Assembly: GCA_947446865.1 (NCBI GenBank)
Contig: CANFHX010000004.1
Coordinates: 5,901-69,900, forward strand
DNA: 64,000 nt
Direction: 5' to 3'
DNA from: Flavobacteriaceae bacterium
GTDB lineage: Bacteria; Bacteroidota; Bacteroidia; Flavobacteriales; Flavobacteriaceae
Shown piece by piece: positions 2,670-63,328 of the stretch. Position 1 is the first letter of the stretch; each line of letters opens with the position of its first letter. A model generated the notes under the pieces. The model saw only the letters and a program-made list of their open reading frames with translations. It made no database searches and was not told the origin of the DNA. The translations under genes and the position numbers were made by a program.

Positions 2670-3365
2670 TTGGCAGAAAAAATAATATCTACAAAATCCA
2701 ACCTTCAAGTACTTCACGAAGACAATCATATTATTGTGATTAATAAGCGTGTAGGCGATATTGTGCAAGGGGATAAAACTGGTGACAAGCCTCTTTCGGA
2801 AGTTGTAAAAGAGTTTATTAAAGAAAAATACAATAAGCCAGGGGAAGTATTCTTAGGTGTAGTACATAGATTGGATCGACCTACAACCGGAATAGTAGTT
2901 TTTGCTAAAACAAGTAAAGCATTAACTAGGTTGAACGAACTTTTCAGCAATCGCGAAACCCATAAAACCTATTGGGCTGTGGTGAAAAATAAACCACCTA
3001 AAAACGAAGATAATTTGGTTCATTTTATCAAAAGAAATGAAAAAAACAACACTTCCAAAGCACATCTTAAAGAAGTTCCCGATAGTAAAAAAGCCTCTTT
3101 AGATTATAAGATCATAAAAGAATTAAACAACTACTTTACTTTAGAAATAAATCTTCACACCGGAAGGCACCATCAAATTAGAGCACAATTATCCATTATA
3201 GGTTGCCCAATAAAAGGCGATTTGAAATATGGTTTTGATAGAAGTAATCCCGATGGAGGTATTCATTTACATGCTCGAAAATTAGTTTTTATTCATCCCG
3301 TTTCTAAGGAAGAACTAACCATCCTCGCTCCTACTCCAGAGGATGTAATTTGGAATGCCGTATAA
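2670..3365 (+). CDS. RluA-family pseudouridine synthase
   Basis: HRLDRPTTG catalytic motif, TGRHHQIR, GDLKYG. TTG start. Confidence 0.93.
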   Translation: MAEKIISTKSNLQVLHEDNHIIVINKRVGDIVQGDKTGDKPLSEVVKEFIKEKYNKPGEVFLGVVHRLDRPTTGIVVFAKTSKALTRLNELFSNRETHKTYWAVVKNKPPKNEDNLVHFIKRNEKNNTSKAHLKEVPDSKKASLDYKIIKELNNYFTLEINLHTGRHHQIRAQLSIIGCPIKGDLKYGFDRSNPDGGIHLHARKLVFIHPVSKEELTILAPTPEDVIWNAV

Positions 3366-20999: not shown

Positions 21000-21049
21000 A
21001 CCTAAATTTTTTTAATTTAAATTACTTATGTCTTGGTTTCTTACTTTTT

Positions 21050-21194
21050 TAGCCCTGATTGAAATGGAAAGCTTTTTGTAAAAGAAAACTAGTTTTTTGT
21101 TTCTAAAAAAAAGCGACCAACGGAAGCTCTTTTTTTAGATTACAAAAACAGTTTTCTTTGCAAAAACTTGGAATGAAAAGCAGGAATAGCTTCT
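21050..21194 (-). repeat. Modular 3'-UTR repeat, copy A (Flavo-1-like candidate) with a long AT-rich central hairpin
   Basis: Minus strand AGAAGCTATTCCTGC ... TTTCCATTTCAATCAGGGCTA. Shares ends with copies at 42398, 50553 and 63168. Confidence 0.8.
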
Positions 21195-21204
21195 GAAAAC
21201 AAGT

Positions 21205-21681
21205 TTAGCAACAACCTGAATTTGGCGTACAACTAGAATTTTCTTTTACCTTCCACTCGCCTATTTTAACTTTCAATTTTTCGAGTGGAATACCACATTT
21301 ATCTTTAGCCAAACAATCGGTTAATTTAGAAAGCAATTGAAAGTTAGTCCCGTCAAATTGAAGATCGAATTTACCGATAGTTTCTTTCATTTGGTACTCG
21401 ACTTCAATTTCTAAATCGGGGATTTGCAGTTTTTCTTCGGATAGTTCGATGATGTGAAGCAATTTTTCGGGATGCAAACGGTGGTCAAAATCGTTAGCTT
21501 CCCAAAGTTGAAAATTTGCCACTTCTTCTGTTCGAACAACCCCACCGCAATCGATGAAATGCTTGGTTATTTTACCAACTTCGGTAACATGAAAATGACT
21601 CGGCACCAATTCGCCATCGGGCAATTGAAAAGCAATTTGAGAAAGTTTTTTTAATTCGGATTTAATTTCGGATAGTTTCAT
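21205..21681 (-). CDS. DUF6428-like hypothetical protein in the ars operon
   Basis: HFHVTEVG, FIDCGG, C-terminal Cys cluster CTPNSGCC. Confidence 0.8.
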   Translation of the reverse strand: MKLSEIKSELKKLSQIAFQLPDGELVPSHFHVTEVGKITKHFIDCGGVVRTEEVANFQLWEANDFDHRLHPEKLLHIIELSEEKLQIPDLEIEVEYQMKETIGKFDLQFDGTNFQLLSKLTDCLAKDKCGIPLEKLKVKIGEWKVKENSSCTPNSGCC

Positions 21682-41026: not shown

Positions 41027-42388
41027 TTGTACGCAATAATAGACATAGAAACTACCGGAGGGCAATTCAACGAAGAAGGAATTACCGAAATCGCTATCTA
41101 CAAATTTGATGGTAGCGAAGTCGTGGACCAGTTCATCAGTTTGGTGAATCCCGAGAAACCCATTCAACCCTTTGTGGTGAAATTAACGGGGATCAATAAT
41201 GCTATGTTGCGTTCGGCTCCAAAGTTTTTTGAAGTTGCAAAACGAATTATTGAAATTACCGAAGGCTGCATCCTAGTGGCGCACAACACCTCCTTTGATT
41301 ACCGAATATTGCGATGCGAATTCAATCGTTTGGGATATGATTTTGTAAAACCAACCCTTTGCACGGTAGAATTATCCAAAAAATTAATCCCAGAACAACC
41401 TTCCTATAGTTTAGGAAAATTAGTCCGAGCACTCGGAATCCCAATGTCCGATAGGCATAGAGCCAGTGGTGATGCACTTGCTACGGTAAAATTATTTCAA
41501 ATGCTTTTGGCAAAAGATACCGAGAAAGAAATTTTAATCGGATTGATAAAAGCTGAAATAAAAAGCGGTCTTTCTCCTAAATTATTAGACATTGTAGAAG
41601 GGCTTCCTAGCAAAACTGGAATTTATTACATACATAATGAAAAAGGCGATTTAATTTATATCGGAAAAAGTAAAAACATAAAAAAAAGAGTCAACCAGCA
41701 TTTCACAGGTAAAAACAGCAAAAGCAAAAAGTTACAATTGCAGGTTTTCACCGTTACTTATGAAGAAACTGGCAGCGAACTAGTGGCACTTTTAAAGGAA
41801 AGCGAAGAAATAAAAATCAACAAACCCATTCACAATCGGGCGCAGCGAAAAAGCATTTTTCAATGGGCGTTGTATGAAGTGCTGGATGACAATGGCTATC
41901 TAAACCTAAAACTTCTTAAAGCCGATGGCCGCAAGAAAGAAATAACGTCCTACACCACCGCTCAAGAAGGAAAAAATGCCCTATTTCGCATTACCGAAAA
42001 ATACAATTTGTGTCAAAAATTAAACGGATTATACGAAACCCAAAACGGCTGTTTTCAGCATAAAATAAACGAATGCAACGGAGCTTGTTTGGGCAAAGAA
42101 ACTCCCGAAGTTTACAACCAAAGAGTCGAAGAATTTCTTACCGAAATGGCATTTGAAAACAACAACATGATTATCGTAGATCGTGGCAGAAAAGTGAGTG
42201 AACGAATCGCAATTTTAATTGAAAACGGCATCTATAAAGGCTATTGTTTTTATGATTTAAATTACCAAATCACCAATGTCGAAGTATTGAAAAACATACT
42301 AATTCCGATGCAAAACAACCGCGATACTCGAACAATAATTCAAAGTTATTTGCGTAAAAATAAAGTAATGAAAATTATAAAGTTTTAA
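41027..42388 (+). CDS. DEDDh exonuclease (DnaQ-like) fused to a GIY-YIG/UvrC-N (Cho-like) nuclease
   Basis: IIDIETTG, AHNTSFD, HRASGDA, GIYYI...YIGKSKNIKKRV, Cys motif C...CFQHKINECNGAC. TTG start. Confidence 0.88.
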   Translation: MYAIIDIETTGGQFNEEGITEIAIYKFDGSEVVDQFISLVNPEKPIQPFVVKLTGINNAMLRSAPKFFEVAKRIIEITEGCILVAHNTSFDYRILRCEFNRLGYDFVKPTLCTVELSKKLIPEQPSYSLGKLVRALGIPMSDRHRASGDALATVKLFQMLLAKDTEKEILIGLIKAEIKSGLSPKLLDIVEGLPSKTGIYYIHNEKGDLIYIGKSKNIKKRVNQHFTGKNSKSKKLQLQVFTVTYEETGSELVALLKESEEIKINKPIHNRAQRKSIFQWALYEVLDDNGYLNLKLLKADGRKKEITSYTTAQEGKNALFRITEKYNLCQKLNGLYETQNGCFQHKINECNGACLGKETPEVYNQRVEEFLTEMAFENNNMIIVDRGRKVSERIAILIENGIYKGYCFYDLNYQITNVEVLKNILIPMQNNRDTRTIIQSYLRKNKVMKIIKF

Positions 42389-42397
42389 TTTTTTTAA

Positions 42398-42479
42398 GGA
42401 GCCATTTCCTGCTATCCGTTACAATCTTTTCTTTTTTTAAAGAAAAAAAAGAAAAGGATTTCCACTGCTATCAGGGCTA
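42398..42479 (+). repeat. Modular 3'-UTR repeat, copy B (Flavo-1-like candidate) with poly-U/poly-A hairpin
   Basis: GGAGCCATTTCCTGCTATCCGTTACAATC-T-rich/A-rich-GGATTTCCACTGCTATCAGGGCTA. Confidence 0.82.
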
Positions 42480-42507
42480 GACCTACCAATCATTAGGCAT
42501 TTTATAA

Positions 42508-43467
42508 ATGCTTTGGATAAAACAAACTGAAGTTTTGAAAAAAAATATTTTAATAACCATCATCGGGCCAACCGCCATCGGAAAAACTTCCTTAAGTATT
42601 GCTTTGGCGCAACATTTTGGTTGCGATATAATTTCCTGTGATAGTCGGCAGTTTTTTAAAGAAATGAAAATTGGTACCGCAGTTCCAACAGATGCTGAAT
42701 TGGCAGGAGCACCCCATCATTTTATTCAAAATAAATCCATTTTTGAAAACTATACCGTTGGCGATTTCGAGAAAGAAGCCATTGCCAAATTAGACGAATT
42801 ATTCTTAAAAAATAACATTCAAATAATGGTTGGTGGCTCAGGATTGTATGTCGATGCAGTATTAAAAGGATTGGATTCTTTTCCAGCTATTGCTCCAGAA
42901 ATTCGGGATGAAGTTCGAACCACCTTTGAAGAAAAAGGATTGGATTACCTTCAAAATAAATTAAAAGAAATGGATGCTTTGTATTATGAATCGTTGTTGC
43001 AAAACAATCCACAAACACTTCAAAATCCGCACCGAATGATGCGTTTTGTAGAAGTTTGTTTAGGAACAAGTAAACCCTATTCTTCCTTTATTAATAAAAA
43101 AGAAAACAAGCGCAACTTCACTCCTATTGTTATTGGCTTAGAAGCCAATCGCGAAATAATGTACAACAGAATCAACCAAAGAGTGGATATAATGCTTAAC
43201 GAAGGACAACTGCAAGAAGCCGAAAGATTGTTCCCAAACAAAGAATTGAATGCCTTGCAAACGGTTGGTTATAGAGAATTGTTTGATTATTTTGAAGGAA
43301 AAATCACTTTAGATTTTGCCATTGAAGAAATCAAGAAAAACACTAGACGCTTTTCTAAAAGACAATTAACTTGGTTTAAACGAACCGAAAATGCAATTTG
43401 GTTTGATTATTTAACTGATAGAAAAGAGATAATAGATAATTTACAATTGATAATAGATAATTCATAA
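42508..43467 (+). CDS. miaA: tRNA dimethylallyltransferase
   Basis: GPTAIGKT, ISCDSRQ, IGTA, VGGSGLY, TVGYREL, SKRQLTWF. True start may be TTG 42535. Confidence 0.96.
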   Translation: MLWIKQTEVLKKNILITIIGPTAIGKTSLSIALAQHFGCDIISCDSRQFFKEMKIGTAVPTDAELAGAPHHFIQNKSIFENYTVGDFEKEAIAKLDELFLKNNIQIMVGGSGLYVDAVLKGLDSFPAIAPEIRDEVRTTFEEKGLDYLQNKLKEMDALYYESLLQNNPQTLQNPHRMMRFVEVCLGTSKPYSSFINKKENKRNFTPIVIGLEANREIMYNRINQRVDIMLNEGQLQEAERLFPNKELNALQTVGYRELFDYFEGKITLDFAIEEIKKNTRRFSKRQLTWFKRTENAIWFDYLTDRKEIIDNLQLIIDNS

Positions 43468-50552: not shown

Positions 50553-50657
50553 CTAATTTCACAAAAGACATAACCCGCGTAGCCCTGACAGAAGCAAGCT
50601 ACCTTGTAGCGCGGATGGCAGGAATTGCCTTTACTAAAATGCCTACTGTTTCGCTCC
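50553..50657 (-). repeat. Modular 3'-UTR repeat, copy C (minimal central hairpin)
   Basis: Minus strand GGAGCGAAACAGTAGGCATTTTAGTAAAGGCAATTCCTGCCATCCGCGCTACAAGGTAGCTTGCTTCTGTCAGGGCTACGCGGGTTATGTCTTTTGTGAAATTAG. Confidence 0.85.
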
Positions 50658-50659
50658 CA

Positions 50660-51568
50660 CTAATCTAAAGGGAATTCTTTTCCGTCTTCGGCTAGATGCA
50701 CGTTGGGGAATATGGTTTCTGCCTCATTTTTAAACATTTCAATGCTGCTGTAGCGTGTGGAATAATGGCCTAAAATTAGGTTTTTAACCTTGGCTTTGAG
50801 GGCAATAGTTGCGGCTTGCTTGGCGGTGGAGTGCATGGTTTTTTCAGAAAGTGGTGCTTCGCTTTCTAGAAAAGTGCTTTCGTGGTAGAGGTAATCGACA
50901 TTTTGAATTATTGGAATGATACTCTCGTCGTACTTAGTATCGCTGCAATAGGCATAGGTTTTTACCGGCAGTGGCGGGAAAGACAACTCGGAATTGGGGA
51001 TCACGGTACCGTTGTCGAGGGTAACATCGCCACCAAATTTTATTTTGTTGAAGTATACTTTATCGATGTTGTAATTTTCGATAGTTTCGATATTGAGTTT
51101 ACGTTCTATGTTTTTTTCTTGGAAAAGAAATCCGTTGGTATAGATGCGATGGCTTAATGGGATGGTCTTTACGATTACTTTTTCGTCTTCAAAAACCGTC
51201 ACCGATTCGGTGGATTCTAGTTCGTGGAAATAGAGGTTGTATCCGGTGTAAGAGCCTGAAGCCTTTAATTGCAAAAGGATGATTTCTTTGATACCTTTTG
51301 GGCCGTGAACGTGCAAATCGTTTTCGCGATTGAGCAACATGAAGGTAGAAATTAACCCAATCAATCCGTAAAAATGATCGCCATGAAGATGGGAAATGAA
51401 AATGTGGTTGATCTTGGAAAACTTGATTTTGCTTTTGCGCAATTGCACTTGGGTTCCTTCGGCACAATCAATTAAGAACACTCTGTTTTTTATTTCTAAA
51501 ATTTGGGAGGTTGGGTTGGAGAAGGTTCTGGGTGTTGCGGCATAGCAGCCAAGTATGGTTAGTTTCAA
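50660..51568 (-). CDS. rnz: Ribonuclease Z
   Basis: LTILGC, LIDCAEGTQ, ISHLHGDH, YCSDT, HESTF, MHST, LGHYSTRY. TTG start. Confidence 0.95.
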   Translation of the reverse strand: MKLTILGCYAATPRTFSNPTSQILEIKNRVFLIDCAEGTQVQLRKSKIKFSKINHIFISHLHGDHFYGLIGLISTFMLLNRENDLHVHGPKGIKEIILLQLKASGSYTGYNLYFHELESTESVTVFEDEKVIVKTIPLSHRIYTNGFLFQEKNIERKLNIETIENYNIDKVYFNKIKFGGDVTLDNGTVIPNSELSFPPLPVKTYAYCSDTKYDESIIPIIQNVDYLYHESTFLESEAPLSEKTMHSTAKQAATIALKAKVKNLILGHYSTRYSSIEMFKNEAETIFPNVHLAEDGKEFPLD

Positions 51569-61439: not shown

Positions 61440-63158
61440 ATGCAGCAACTCGATTGGATAGTACTTTCCGTAACCTTATTGTTCATCATTTTATATGGCG
61501 TTTACAAAACACGCGGAAGTAAAAATGTAGAAGAATATATCTTGGCCAACAAAGAAACCCCGTGGTGGGTGGTTGGACTATCCGTTATGGCAACCCAAGC
61601 CAGTGCTATTACCTTTCTTTCCACTCCAGGCCAAGCCTACCACGACGGAATGGGTTTCATCCAATTCTATTTCGGACTACCAATAGCCATGGTCGTAATT
61701 TGCATCGTCTTTATTCCTATTTACCATAAATACAAAGTCTTTACCGCCTACCAATACCTAGAGCAACGTTTCGATTTAAAAACCCGATCCTTGGCCGCAA
61801 TTTTATTCCTAATCCAACGTGGTTTAGCAGCCGGAATCACCATCTATGCACCATCCATAATCCTCTCCACCCTACTCGGCTGGAATTTAACCCTACTCAA
61901 CATCATCATCGGAATATCCGTAATATTCTATACTTTCATTGGCGGAACCAAAGCCGTAAATGTTACCCAAAAACAACAAATGTTTGTCATCCTTTCGGGG
62001 ATGTTTGTCACGTTCTACCTTATCCTTCACATGTTACCAAACGAAATGACTTTTTCCAATGCGCTGCACATTGCAGGAGCCAACGACAAAATGAACATCC
62101 TTGATTTCTCTCTAGATACCGAAACCCGATACACGTTTTGGAGTGGAATCACCGGTGGATTCTTCCTAATGCTGTCCTATTTCGGAACCGACCAAACCCA
62201 AGTCGGGCGCTATCTTTCGGGTAAAACCGATCGTGAAAGCCAACTCGGTTTAATCATGAACGGATTTCTAAAAGTTCCCATGCAGTTTTTTATCCTGCTA
62301 ACAGGAGTAATGGTTTTTGTGTTTTTCCAATTCAATCCGGTGCCGTTAAATTTCAATCCCAATAACAAAACACTAATTGAAAACTCCAAATTCAAAGACG
62401 ATTACAACAAACTCGAAACTAAATTAACCGCCCTAGCCGAAGAAAAAAAAGAATACAACTTACTGTATATTGACCATTTAAATCAAAATTTTGATAATCC
62501 AATTCTCCGAAACAAACTCAAAGAATTGGCAGGAAGAGAAAAAGATTTGCGCGATCAAGCCAAAGAACTGATCGAAAAAGTAGATGTAAAAGCCGAAACC
62601 AACGACAAAGATTACGTTTTCTTGCACTTCATTTTGCACTATCTACCCAAAGGCCTAATCGGACTTCTACTTGCCGTAATCATCTCGGCAGCCATGTCAT
62701 CCTCCGCATCCGAACTAACCGCACTAGCCTCCACCACAGCCATTGACATCTACAAGCGCAACATAAAAAACGAAAAATCCGAAAAACATTTCGTTTACGC
62801 CACCCAATTTTTCACCCTAGGATGGGGAATCATCGCAATACTTTTTGCTTGCGTTTGCATCCTTTTCGAAAACCTAATCCAGTTAGTAAACATCCTAGGA
62901 TCTATATTTTATGGCACCGTACTCGGCATTTTCTTAGTAGGATTTTTAGTAAAATTCGTCAAAGGAAAATCCATATTCTACAGCGCAGCCATCAGCCAAA
63001 TCTCCATCTTTTTCATCTACTACTATTTTATCCACATCTACCCAAGCGGTCAAGAAAAACTAGGATATTTATGGCTCAACTTCATCGGAGCCCTCCTAAC
63101 CTTAGTGCTTTCCATCGTCTTCCAACTCCTCTTAAATTTAAGAAAAAAGACCCTTTAA
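61440..63158 (+). CDS. Sodium:solute symporter (SSS) family transporter
   Basis: GLSVMATQASAITF, YLEQRF, GTDQTQVGRYL, SAAMSS. About 13 TM helices with a long soluble loop. Confidence 0.92.
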   Translation: MQQLDWIVLSVTLLFIILYGVYKTRGSKNVEEYILANKETPWWVVGLSVMATQASAITFLSTPGQAYHDGMGFIQFYFGLPIAMVVICIVFIPIYHKYKVFTAYQYLEQRFDLKTRSLAAILFLIQRGLAAGITIYAPSIILSTLLGWNLTLLNIIIGISVIFYTFIGGTKAVNVTQKQQMFVILSGMFVTFYLILHMLPNEMTFSNALHIAGANDKMNILDFSLDTETRYTFWSGITGGFFLMLSYFGTDQTQVGRYLSGKTDRESQLGLIMNGFLKVPMQFFILLTGVMVFVFFQFNPVPLNFNPNNKTLIENSKFKDDYNKLETKLTALAEEKKEYNLLYIDHLNQNFDNPILRNKLKELAGREKDLRDQAKELIEKVDVKAETNDKDYVFLHFILHYLPKGLIGLLLAVIISAAMSSSASELTALASTTAIDIYKRNIKNEKSEKHFVYATQFFTLGWGIIAILFACVCILFENLIQLVNILGSIFYGTVLGIFLVGFLVKFVKGKSIFYSAAISQISIFFIYYYFIHIYPSGQEKLGYLWLNFIGALLTLVLSIVFQLLLNLRKKTL

Positions 63159-63167
63159 TTTTTTTTT

Positions 63168-63328
63168 AGAAGCGAAACAGTAGGCATTTTAGTAATTGTA
63201 ATTCCTGCCATCCGTTGCAATCTGGCATTGCGAGGAACGAAGCAATCCTATAACAACATAAGCCTATCGCAATGCCAGGATTTCCACTTCTGTCAGGGCT
63301 ACCAAGGTTATGTCTTTGGTGAAAATAG
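63168..63328 (+). repeat. Modular 3'-UTR repeat, copy D, with a nested REP-like hairpin
   Basis: Same leader and tail as copy C. Centre CTGGCATTGCGAGGAACGAAGCAATC...TCGCAATGCCAG. Confidence 0.85.

Follow-up and report, generated by a model that had tools for sequence, protein, structure and literature searches.

Flavo-1 in a Flavobacteriaceae genome: a modular hairpin repeat at the peak of strand-specific T-to-C gradients

Four copies of a repeat in the window

The window analysed here, the whole stretch of 64,000 nucleotides, carries four copies of an intergenic repeat, two on each strand (Table 1). A sequence-only reading had located them, and all four are present at the positions it gave. 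In the orientation that it used (hereafter the reader orientation), each carries TTCCTGC towards its 5' side and has (A/G)TCAGGGCTA at its 3' end. Their centres are unrelated to one another, as it had also observed: a long AT-rich centre in copy 1 (the 135-139 nt class), a poly-T/poly-A hairpin in copy 2, GCTAC-CTT-GTAGC in copy 3 and, in copy 4, a long loop on a 12-bp stem. The last belongs to a class of 99-101 nt with 25 copies in the genome, and copy 3 to a 45-nt class without the inner GGAAATCC/GATTG module.

Each of the four follows the stop codon of a real gene and reads in the sense of that gene. The upstream genes of copies 1 to 4 encode a DUF6428 protein, a DEDDh exonuclease/GIY-YIG protein, RNase Z and an SSF symporter, respectively (Pfam). 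When the conserved 5' module (a T-run plus AGRAGC...) is counted as part of the element, the distance from the stop codon to its start is 10 nt for copy 1, 9 nt (0 with the T-run) for copy 2, 2 nt for copy 3 and 0-9 nt for copy 4; the short module of copy 1 reaches to within 5 nt of the stop codon. Copy 1 lies in the interior of an ars operon, in the spacer that separates the DUF6428 gene from one for a methyltransferase; copy 2 occupies the spacer between the exonuclease gene and miaA.

Table 1. Repeat modules and affected genes in the window
Feature	Position	Strand	Basis or value
Copy 1 core	21050..21186	Rfam-sense +, reader -	Rfam Flavo-1 58.0 bits; sequence; neighbour Pfam
Copy 1 type B (short) 5' module ttttcAGAAGCTA	21187..21199	-	flank alignment, 87 copies
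Stop codon preceding copy 1	21205-21207		
Copy 2 5' shadow (weaker), exonuclease gene	41027..42388	+	C3 0.242
Copy 2 type B 5' module, T-run + AAGGAGCCA	42389..42405	+	directly 3' of TAA stop 42386-42388
Copy 2 core	42406..42479	Rfam-sense -, reader +	Rfam 83.4 bits
Copy 3 type A 3' module AGGTTATGTCTTTTGTGAAA..TTTCAAAGGAA	50538..50579	-	conservation profile, 67 type A copies
Copy 3 core	50580..50624	Rfam-sense +, reader -	sub-threshold Flavo-1 match, 26.9 bits, E = 9e-4
Copy 3 type A 5' module GGGAGCGAAACAGTAGGCATTTTAGTAAAGGCAA	50625..50659	-	2 nt past RNase Z stop 50660-50662
Copy 3 5' shadow, RNase Z gene	50660..51568	-	C3 0.377 vs genome mean 0.139 (sd 0.045)
Copy 4 5' shadow, SSF symporter gene	61440..63158	+	third-position C/(C+T) 0.655
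Copy 4 type A 5' module, T-run + AGAAGCGAAACAGTAGGCATTTTAGTAATTGTAA	63159..63201	+	directly 3' of TAA stop 63156-63158
Copy 4 core	63202..63301	Rfam-sense -, reader +	Rfam 63.1 bits
Copy 4 type A 3' module ccaAGGTTATGTCTTTGGTGAAAATAGTTTTTCAAAAAAA	63302..63345	+	flank alignment + conservation profile

Family identity and modular anatomy

The Flavo-1 RNA motif (RF01705) was reported by Weinberg et al. (2010) with no function assigned (PMC2864571). The resemblance to this motif that the sequence-only reading had suggested is confirmed by the Rfam covariance model for three of the four copies (42401-42482, 63197-63304 and 21047-21191; E 5e-17 to 5e-10). All three exceed the curated gathering threshold of 42 bits, and they match on the strand complementary to the reader orientation. 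Copy 3 (50577-50629) falls below this threshold and matches in the three outer helices only, its inner module and long stem being replaced by a 5-bp hairpin. It is tied to Flavo-1 by its arms and its type A outer modules, which are common in the family and are also found in copy 4.

Outside the window, the genome has no fewer than 72 copies that score above the cut-off, and scoring 150 of 929 candidates yielded at least 79 Flavo-1 matches. Our own pattern inventory comprises 87 copies and misses at least three variants. The number of copies far exceeds chance: in a 5.3-Mb genome the left-arm pattern has 32 matches and its reversed control none. The genome is a draft of 76 contigs, with genes called by a home-made caller, and many copies lie at contig ends. 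In all, it holds about 90-100 copies of Flavo-1.

The copies are modular in the way first proposed, with two fixed but imperfect arms enclosing a swappable central hairpin that is drawn from several discrete classes. The core is in turn flanked by conserved outer modules, which come in a long form (type A, about 35 + 40 nt) and a short form (type B), so the element is longer than the 76-position Rfam model, and variants with short centres score below threshold. Copies of the same class are 73-81% identical, and subfamilies and nested insertions are seen among them. The possibility that the type A modules are an independent element invaded by the core was rejected, as not a single core-less copy was found, and no pairing between the outer modules is predicted. 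The copies are not intrinsic terminators of the kind in which a G+C-rich hairpin precedes a U-tract: the T-run lies 5' of the hairpin in gene sense, and an A-run lies 3' of it in Rfam sense. A terminator scan flags only copy 3, through a marginal 5-bp match, and its total matches do not exceed those in shuffled controls.

The probable structured strand

The closing stem covaries: at the N position of TAGCCCNGA/GCN'GGAA, every one of the four Watson-Crick pairs is found. Compensatory double changes are found in 18 of 22 predicted pairs among 28 copies from four genomes, and within this genome 95% of the pairs are Watson-Crick. Wobble pairs distinguish the two strands. G-U pairs on the Rfam-sense strand outnumber those on the other strand by 10 to 2 in the four-genome set and by 17 to 10 in this genome, a modestly significant difference overall (27 vs 12). 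Folded as single-stranded DNA, the Rfam-sense strand is the more stable in each comparison (-15.2 vs -12.9, -17.9 vs -14.2 and -7.3 vs -4.8 kcal/mol), the value of -15.2 kcal/mol for copy 2 corresponding to z = -4.2. The arms carry conserved asymmetric internal loops rich in purines, and purine-rich symmetric internal loops likewise speak for the Rfam-sense strand. Because the orientation of the Rfam model, the G-U wobbles, the purine-rich loops and the fold energies agree, we favour the Rfam-sense strand as the one predicted to be structured, opposite to the gene sense in which the copies were initially read. For most copies in this genome it is the strand that serves as template for the upstream gene.

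Distribution among relatives

Within the genus, counts of Flavo-1 per genome run from 1-5 up to at least 93, and several genera share the conserved motif. In most relatives, the exonuclease-miaA and pdxH-rnz spacers measure 14-130 nt and are free of the element; at the site orthologous to copy 2, relative G014 lacks the T-run as well as the element. An orthologous copy in relative G017 retains its pairing through compensatory changes, which suggests that it has been maintained in place. The housekeeping genes upstream of the copies keep their order across the genus. We rejected integron attC sites and gene cassettes as an identity for the repeat, since the copies are dispersed behind these order-conserved and vertically inherited genes.

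Rfam annotates Flavo-1 as free-standing genes for trans-acting small RNAs, each of which would have its own promoter and be transcribed in the Rfam sense. The covariation and wobble pairs that favour this strand, and the presence of the motif in several genera, would fit such genes. However, they would have to exist in about 100 copies with interchangeable centres, in numbers that differ manyfold within one genus, at sites that are empty in relatives, and squeezed into operons at 0-20 nt from stop codons. By eye, the copies have no conserved Bacteroidetes-type promoter and no terminator, the Rfam-sense hairpin being followed by an A-run, and the supplement of Weinberg et al. (2010) contains no functional evidence (PMC2864571). 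We consider small-RNA genes very improbable. Given the variation in copy number and the mostly empty orthologous sites, Flavo-1 in this genome is a dispersed, modular, hairpin-forming intergenic repeat rather than a set of small-RNA genes.

Position and orientation relative to genes

The rule proposed from the window, that copies stand in sense just after a stop codon, survives at the scale of the genome as a strong tendency and fails as a rule. Between genes of the same direction, 39 of 47 copies are in sense (binomial p = 6e-6) and eight in antisense, and another 13 copies occupy spacers between divergent genes. The start of 29 out of 53 copies falls between -2 and +16 nt from a stop codon, and seven copies overlap a TAG stop. 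Copies sit inside operons, such as ars and the rnz-pdxH spacer, where sense transcription through them is very probable; at such sites they must not terminate or disrupt transcription. Elsewhere in the genus the bias is the exception. One genome, G003, has it (9:1), whereas the other four of the five checked (G008, G002, G014 and G017) do not, with sense to antisense counts of 9:12, 1:5, 4:2 and 4:2. In the transcriptome of F. psychrophilum, Flavo-1 matches lie in sense, in antisense and outside transcripts (PMC9723704).

These observations bear on the proposal that the repeat is a cis-acting 3'-UTR RNA, that is, the tail of the upstream mRNA, whose hairpin stabilises or processes the message. 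The sense bias here and in G003, the close spacing to stop codons and the probable sense transcription of the copies in operons are all in its favour. Yet the strand that appears to be structured is the opposite one, the antisense and divergent-spacer copies have no place in such a scheme, and neither the unbiased relatives nor the F. psychrophilum matches conform to it. We therefore disfavour a structured RNA read in gene sense and rate it as quite unlikely. Placement after stop codons is, we infer, no sign of a function of sense-strand RNA; it may be a lineage-specific outcome of insertion preference, of purifying selection or of both. A replication-strand rule was also considered and dropped: in the complete genome G008 a replichore bias of 27:5 among 32 matches fell to 36:25 among 61. 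In the draft genome studied here, local skew mixes replication with the footprint of the element itself.

Search for a mobilising enzyme

The second proposal made from the window, a non-autonomous mobile or dispersed element, fits better than a 3'-UTR RNA, although the mobilising enzyme that it calls for was not found. The suggested link to a REP-associated tyrosine transposase is not supported. The genome has one intact Y1 gene (contig C7:24112-24456), which scores 73.6 bits as IS200 and 21.3 as RAYT (cut-off 80). The GTAG-hairpin in front of it differs from Flavo-1 and occurs only twice in the genome, and the contig of the gene carries no copy of Flavo-1. No nicking or mobilising enzyme linked to the repeat was found. 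Of the marks of a MITE, which include terminal inverted repeats, target-site duplications and a parent insertion sequence ending alike, the arms show an imperfect inverted repeat; no target-site duplication is visible at the 87 boundaries, and the available empty sites are too diverged (70-80% identity) to give exact junctions.

Flavo-1 could still be a selfish REP/MITE-like element that is mobilised as single-stranded DNA by an IS200-type Y1 (HUH) transposase, in which case the choice of target would explain where and in which direction it lies, and repeated nicking would produce the gradient described below as a by-product. Y1 enzymes (IS200/IS605, RAYT) tell the strands apart by asymmetric internal loops, and the arms have conserved loops of this kind. 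The intact IS200-like gene, the subfamilies, the nested insertions and the empty sites are also consistent with mobility, as is the co-occurrence of Flavo-1 and Y1_Tnp matches in the same four of 13 sampled genera, although the genera without both have small, streamlined genomes, which is a confounder. Within the genus the association fails, as G002, G003, G005 and G016 have 59-93 or more copies and no full-length Y1 gene. The foreign hairpin at the Y1 gene, the boundaries without visible duplications, the 73-81% identity within classes, which implies no recent burst, and the pairing preserved in the G017 copy further count against transposition of this type, which we regard as unlikely.

A strand-specific T-to-C gradient

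The DNA around the copies has an unusual composition. On the reader strand, third-position C/(C+T) is 0.48 at the element against a baseline of 0.26 and declines smoothly to about 0.29 by -3 kb and 0.25 by +2 kb, with G/(G+A) flat throughout. The enrichment thus extends over 1.5-3 kb, and it is specific to this lineage. Both the apex and a step coincide exactly with the element, and from there the signal fades smoothly to either side. The effect is seen too in genes of the opposite strand (C/(C+T) 0.42), and the gradient is unaffected by gene direction. At equal distance, first and second genes are alike regardless of strand or operon gap, which rules out an effect bounded by transcription units; a 3'-UTR RNA would leave such a gradient, bound to a DNA strand and blind to transcription units, without explanation. 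The polarity index is positive at 78 of 82 copies, with a mean of 0.184 compared to 0.001 +/- 0.069 at 3000 random sites. Of the 13 genes with the highest C3 genome-wide, eleven adjoin a copy, and the remaining two adjoin a contig end and a copy that the patterns had missed. The raw composition profile displays the gradient independently of gene calls. Almost every copy is the peak of a kilobase-long T-to-C zone on one strand.

The window provides three examples. The SSF symporter gene, upstream of copy 4, has a GC skew of -0.21 to -0.26 despite lying on the + strand, and an AT skew of 0.01-0.14. Its orthologues in 13 relatives have C/(C+T) values of 0.23-0.42, and polarised T>C changes number 37 in this lineage versus 11 in the sister lineage. 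For the RNase Z gene (rnz), upstream of copy 3, the corresponding counts are 24 and 3, and C3 is 0.09-0.19 in orthologues from 13 relatives. The exonuclease gene upstream of copy 2 is less clear-cut: C/(C+T) is 0.50 over its last 230 codons and 0.26-0.45 in orthologues.

Several ordinary causes of such composition were rejected. High-expression codon bias is at odds with the C3 of GroEL (0.074) and with the fact that genes on the opposite strand gain G, not C; GroEL is the sole yardstick of high expression, EF-Tu and ribosomal protein L2 not having been found in the assembly. A membrane-protein effect is contradicted by the correlation between hydropathy and skew, which is only -0.05. Ordinary lagging-strand genes do not suffice either, as GC3 skew differs between the strands of a contig by no more than 0.16, which falls well short of a value of -0.38. 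Horizontal import of the rnz and SSF genes is countered by their normal orthologues and by protein identities to the sister genome that equal those of their neighbours (85% for RNase Z, the same as for the adjacent pdxH). Resection from double-strand breaks is disfavoured, since it should leave its mark on different strands to the left and right of the element, and the mark is on a single strand throughout.

It is also conceivable that the element does not cause the zones, and that copies insert or survive in already skewed DNA in a fixed orientation, or that skew and copy were both imported by recombination from another lineage. The gradient is strong in this genome and probably in G003, but weak or absent at the copies of G008, G002, G014 and G017, and the exonuclease gene is moderately C3-rich in relatives that lack the element. 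Intergenic sites near copies are barely shifted (0.304 vs 0.263), which counts against a purely mutational process unless spacers are constrained or turn over fast. Set against this are the position of apex and step, the smooth two-sided decay, the nearly uniform polarity and the proximity of nearly all extreme genes to a copy. Import from a distant donor is unlikely because the element-free orthologues are normal and the protein identities match those of the neighbours. Skew that preceded the element, or arrived with it, is in our judgement rather improbable.

Proposed mechanism

The reading that we prefer, with a probability of roughly 0.55, is that Flavo-1 acts at the level of DNA, as a one-strand hairpin repeat that causes the local T>C gradient. 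When unpaired, the Rfam-sense strand would fold into the full hairpin, at which some process would repeatedly start or stall. Candidates are stalling in which the nascent complementary strand is re-synthesised with errors, nicking that displaces a strand, and prolonged single-strandedness with deamination of adenine. The outcome would be a change of A into G on the Rfam-sense strand and hence of T into C on the gene-sense strand, in an effect that falls off exponentially within about 1-3 kb, with one side more strongly affected. Companion C>T change on the exposed strand is at most faint, and the T>C changes show no strong dependence on neighbouring bases. The weak or absent gradient in relatives with copies indicates that the hairpin alone is insufficient and that a lineage factor is missing from the model. 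A candidate for this factor is the loss of endonuclease V: the enzyme was not found in this genome or in G003 and is present in G008, but it was likewise not found in G002, G014 and G017, which lack the gradient.

More generally, Flavo-1 hairpins may be sites at which one strand is recurrently exposed, nicked or re-synthesised, and which act in some lineages as polar, strand-specific local mutators, a proposition to which we give about even odds. On that reading, up to half of the free T positions in neighbouring housekeeping genes would have turned into C over 1-3 kb. If true, this would provide an orphan motif with an activity at the DNA level. It would also link the motif to the unexplained 'intense skew' of GRINS. 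If such repeats recode genes, methods based on codon usage or GC skew would be locally misled (in the prediction of expression, the detection of horizontal transfer and the finding of origins), and intergenic repeats would be a source of directional change in housekeeping genes.

Comparison with known systems

The elements described here share with Flavo-1 as defined in Rfam the helices, the internal loops, the terminal stem of variable length and the taxonomic range. They differ in being a repeat of about 100 copies where Rfam has the class 'Gene; sRNA', and in extending beyond the model, with outer modules, sub-threshold variants, a gene-sense bias and a flanking gradient. We found neither the gene-sense bias nor the flanking mutation gradient of Flavo-1 described in the literature. 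Three features alter how Flavo-1 is best studied: its behaviour as a modular dispersed repeat, an apparent structured strand that usually lies opposite to the neighbouring gene, and, in at least one lineage, its place at the apex of a strand-specific substitution gradient. Taken together, they open the motif to testable hypotheses at the DNA level, namely stalling, priming, nicking or single-strand exposure.

REP/BIME elements of enterobacteria and BOX elements of the pneumococcus are likewise extragenic, high-copy and hairpin-forming, are built from combinable modules (A-Bn-C in BOX), often lie after genes and inside operons, and vary in copy number between relatives. Flavo-1 is not related to them in sequence, there is no repeat-flanked RAYT gene here, and its arms have asymmetric purine-rich loops. 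To our knowledge, kilobase-scale, strand-specific recoding of neighbouring genes has not been reported for REP or BOX.

In vertebrate mitochondrial DNA, an A>G gradient tracks the time that the heavy strand spends single-stranded (PMC9561281). The gradient around Flavo-1 is of the same A>G/T>C type, peaks at third positions, is graded with distance and is anchored at a stem-loop, which in mitochondria is the light-strand origin. Unlike the mitochondrial gradient, it is chromosomal, arises at many sites, spans about 1-3 kb and is nearly devoid of companion C>T change.

GRINS are duplicated coding segments, each over 500 bp long, that are found in polyketide synthase genes and further gene families and are linked to gene conversion (2021, PMC8256042). 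Both they and the zones around Flavo-1 have local, intense GC and TA skews of the same sign inside functional genes, strongest at third codon positions. GRINS are defined by duplication over more than 500 bp at more than 80% identity and by mean |GC skew| and |TA skew| both above 0.15; the SSF symporter DNA is single-copy, and its TA skew lies under that cut-off. In contrast to GRINS, the DNA affected here is single-copy housekeeping DNA beside an intergenic hairpin repeat, and the change is confined to T>C.

Flavo-1 copies in the window

The four stretches picked out by a sequence-only reading are present as claimed, with TTCCTGC on the left, (A/G)TCAGGGCTA on the right in that reading's orientation, and four unrelated centres. 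ORF and Pfam analysis places each behind a real gene and in that gene's sense, two per strand, with 0-10 nt between the stop codon and the element when the conserved 5' module is included. The suspected resemblance to the Flavo-1 RNA motif is also borne out: Rfam cmscan calls three copies Flavo-1 at 83.4, 63.1 and 58.0 bits (gathering score, 42 bits), and the fourth, with a 5-bp centre, scores a sub-threshold 26.9 bits from a match confined to the outer helices. Flavo-1 is an already known family. Relative to the reader's orientation, its Rfam model matches the other strand; we call TTCCYGC...CRGGGCTA the reader strand and its complement the Rfam-sense strand.

Locations of Flavo-1 copies and associated features (C, contigs; L, extracted stretches; G000, the window's own genome; G008 and G017, other genomes of the genus)
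Feature	Location	Context
Window copy 1, core	window 21050-21186	upstream gene DUF6428, in ars operon (Pfam)
Window copy 2, core	window 42406-42479	upstream gene DEDDh exonuclease/GIY-YIG protein (Pfam)
Window copy 3, core	window 50580-50624	upstream gene RNase Z (Pfam)
Window copy 4, core	window 63202-63301	upstream gene SSF symporter (Pfam)
G017 exonuclease-miaA copy	L002:1085-1195	orthologous to window 42398-42479
Copies with ~46-nt insert	G000 C6:58257-58378, C40:22362-22485, C2:10652-10768, C23:5901-6019	outside the window
Flanks with TTGTCATTCTGACGCAGGAGG-like repeat	G000 C1:217108, C36:28994, C55:15153, C66:719	
Intact IS200-type Y1 transposase, 153 aa	L013:1256-1950 (= G000 C7:23867-24561)	
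SSF orthologue in G008	L147 (G008 C1:181048-185699)	Flavo-1 copy ~380 nt downstream

Census and anatomy

G000 consists of 3.07 Mb on 76 contigs with a G+C content of 33%. It has at least 79 Flavo-1 matches (150 of 929 candidates scored), and pattern searches with a pairing rule recovered 87 copies versus 6 in a non-complementary control; the 87 are a lower bound, at least three further diverged copies having surfaced afterwards. Core lengths are discrete (45, 63-64, 71-74, 99-101 and 135-139 nt). Every length class is built around a different centre, and within-class identity is only 73-81%. The element extends beyond the Rfam model at both ends. Type A (67 copies) has a 5' module of about 35 nt (a T-run, AGGAGCGAA and GGCATTTTAGTAAA) and a conserved 3' module of about 40 nt (AGGTTATGTCTTTTGTGAAA...TTTCAAAAGAAAC); type B (20 copies) has a short AGRAGCYA on the 5' side and AGCCTATC on the 3' side. 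No core-less long modules were found in G000, and no pairing is predicted between the long outer modules.

Other repeats accompany some copies. An element of about 46 nt (ATCTCAC...GGAGTTCGATGAAT...CATT) is inserted in one arm of four copies, always at GATT^G, and looks like a nested repeat with a site preference. A TTGTCATTCTGACGCAGGAGG-like repeat, often 60-70 nt past the 3' module, seems to cluster with type A copies. Contigs C7, C22, C30, C19 and C13 have strongly one-directional genes (22 kb vs 89 kb of coding sequence by direction on C7) and no Flavo-1 copies; contigs of mixed gene orientation carry several. EF-Tu domain 3 (PF03143) and ribosomal protein L2 (PF00181) were not found in the 95%-complete assembly, from which a ribosomal-protein region seems to be missing.

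Distribution among relatives

The 18 other genomes of the genus contain 1, 3, 5 and up to at least 93 Flavo-1 matches each, all lower bounds, and none turned up in 9 of the 12 other genera of the order sampled. The exonuclease-miaA spacer is 14-60 nt long and lacks the element in six relatives; the pdxH-rnz spacer likewise lacks it in the relatives examined. G017, the closest relative, carries a copy in this exonuclease-miaA position. Its closing pair (T-A to C-G) and inner helix both show compensatory changes, and its terminal loop harbours a nested common Bacteroidota repeat (GTCACCCTGAGCGCAGTCGAAGGG). In G000, Flavo-1 behaves as a dispersed repeat, not a gene family. For miaA, the start given by the longest ORF (ATG at 42508) is probably incorrect; the relatives' alignment (MKYLITIIGPT...) fits a TTG at 42535, which would put the gene 55 nt from window copy 2.

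A search for a REP-associated transposase, as the sequence-only reading had suggested, found Y1 genes in G000 (a single intact IS200-type gene, a broken copy and a weak domain match), with no link to Flavo-1 shown. Two tandem 'GTAG + GCAATGGATT-N3-AATCCGTTGC' hairpins precede the intact gene and occur nowhere else in G000; their 3' arm and the Flavo-1 left arm have ATCCGTTGC in common, which may be coincidence. Across the order, the 4 of 13 genera with Flavo-1 matches are also those with Y1 matches, but the remaining genera have small genomes; within the genus, four copy-rich genomes have no full-length Y1 gene.

Orientation and the structured strand

The proposal that copies always follow a stop codon in the sense of the upstream gene holds as a strong tendency in G000. 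On home-made gene calls (2777 genes, 90% coding), 39 of the 47 copies between same-direction genes are in the reader's sense orientation (p = 6e-6); others lie between convergent (10) or divergent (13) genes, overlap small ORF calls (11) or sit at contig edges (6). The 5' module starts -2 to +16 nt from the stop codon in 29 of 53 sense copies, and the TAG stop overlaps AGGAGC in seven. The rule is not general, however, since other genomes are mixed: sense to antisense counts are 9:12 in the closed genome G008, 1:5 in G002, 4:2 in both G014 and G017, and 9:1 in G003. In a published F. psychrophilum transcriptome, Flavo-1 matches are sense, antisense and also outside transcribed regions (PMC9723704). 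Weinberg's supplement gives only the occurrence of the motif.

Predicted pairs in G000 copies are 95% Watson-Crick, and there are 17 G-U pairs on the Rfam-sense strand vs 10 on the opposite strand. Among 28 copies from four genomes the corresponding counts are 10 vs 2, and the covariation check revealed compensatory double changes in 18 of 22 pairs. Two symmetric 3x3 internal loops (GAA/GGA and GGA/GUA) are purine-rich on the Rfam-sense strand only. Folded as single-stranded DNA, this strand forms a complete hairpin and, in each of the three copies tested, is stabler than the complementary strand. The G-U pairs, compensatory changes, purine-rich loops and fold stability thus point to the template strand of the upstream gene as the structured strand of most G000 copies, which counts against a structured RNA in the sense 3'-UTR. 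The cis 3'-UTR reading is therefore supported only in part: such an element would fit the sense bias near stops in G000, but the structured strand appears to be the opposite one and the bias is not general. An intrinsic terminator was rejected as well: the T-run comes before the hairpin in gene sense, the A-run after it in Rfam sense, and a terminator scan does not flag the copies.

A strand-specific T>C shadow

While orientation was being tested against replication, an abnormal composition emerged in the genes just 5' of copies (reader orientation). At third codon positions, genes upstream of the 39 sense copies have a C content (C3) of 0.248 against a genome mean of 0.139 (sd 0.045) and a T content of 0.295 against 0.383, with A and G unaltered. 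The top three C3 values (0.373-0.377) among the roughly 130 genes of the window's contig belong to genes upstream of three copies. A composition profile independent of gene calls gives a GC skew of -0.21 to -0.26 over the + strand SSF gene and +0.18 to +0.25 over the - strand rnz gene.

On the reader strand, C/(C+T) at third codon positions is 0.46-0.48 within 600 nt 5' of the element, from where it declines smoothly and is about 0.29 at -3 kb. The 3' side begins lower, at 0.37, and has dropped to 0.25-0.27 at +1.6 to +2 kb. G/(G+A) is flat along the whole gradient (0.21-0.27). The shift is largest at third, moderate at first and nil at second codon positions, with no strong dependence on neighbour context, and a companion C>T change is faint. 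With C/(C+T) minus G/(G+A) taken as a shadow index, 78 of 82 copies have positive values; the mean is 0.184 vs 0.001 +/- 0.069 at 3000 random sites, and 51 copies exceed the control 99th percentile. Thirteen genes in the genome have C3/(C3+T3) of at least 0.55; 11 adjoin a copy, one a contig end and one a copy missed by the patterns. Every core class and both types show the shadow.

Opposite-strand genes near copies show the same effect (0.42) and so gain G-ending codons, which rules out codon preference, and a GroEL C3 of 0.074 rules out expression-linked bias. First and second genes are alike at equal distance from the copy, and the second gene's value is independent of strand and operon gap. 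These observations show that the shadow tracks DNA strand and distance, not genes or transcription. Intergenic spacers near copies are barely shifted (0.304 vs 0.263).

Origin of the shadow

The rnz gene has a C3 of 0.377 in G000 and 0.09-0.19 in 13 orthologues, with 24 polarised T>C changes on this lineage vs 3 on the sister (G014); SSF has a C/(C+T) of 0.655 against 0.23-0.42 in 13 orthologues, with 37 vs 11 such changes. On the 3' side of the rnz copy, pdxH has 7 vs 7. Identity to the G014 protein is 85% for rnz and the same for neighbouring pdxH. Judged from these orthologues, the shadow arose in situ on the G000 lineage. It is probably present around G003 copies (index about +0.12) and weak or absent in G008, G002, G014 and G017; the genomes showing it (G000 and probably G003) are the same two with sense bias. 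The copy near the G008 SSF orthologue is in opposite orientation, and the gene's composition is normal. The shadow would also need a lineage factor, and none was found; absence of endonuclease V does not track it.

The shadow is bound to strand and distance, peaks with a step at the element and is blind to transcription units. These properties suggest that the hairpin anchors a DNA process; this is the cause we infer, though copies may instead, with lower probability, have inserted into DNA that was already skewed. On the Rfam-sense strand, the one that forms the full hairpin, the change is A>G. That strand may be exposed for long periods, or nicking and strand displacement may be involved; alternatively, a polymerase copying it would stall, and the nascent strand to either side of the block would be resected and re-made in an error-prone manner. 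Symmetric break resection fits poorly, since one and the same strand is affected to the left and right of the element. The best-supported reading is a modular dispersed hairpin repeat acting at the DNA level on the Rfam-sense strand.

Comparison with known systems

The Flavo-1 family itself is known; what is new and noteworthy is the strand-specific T>C shadow. No description of such a gradient, whether around Flavo-1 or around any other intergenic repeat of bacteria, was found in the part of the literature covered, which does not prove novelty. The nearest precedent is vertebrate mitochondrial DNA, where an A>G gradient on the heavy strand, like the A>G change on the Rfam-sense strand here, tracks the time spent single-stranded (PMC9561281). 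GRINS, too, show intense third-position skews of the same sign. They consist of duplicated coding segments (PMC8256042), whereas the zones described here are single-copy and show T>C only.
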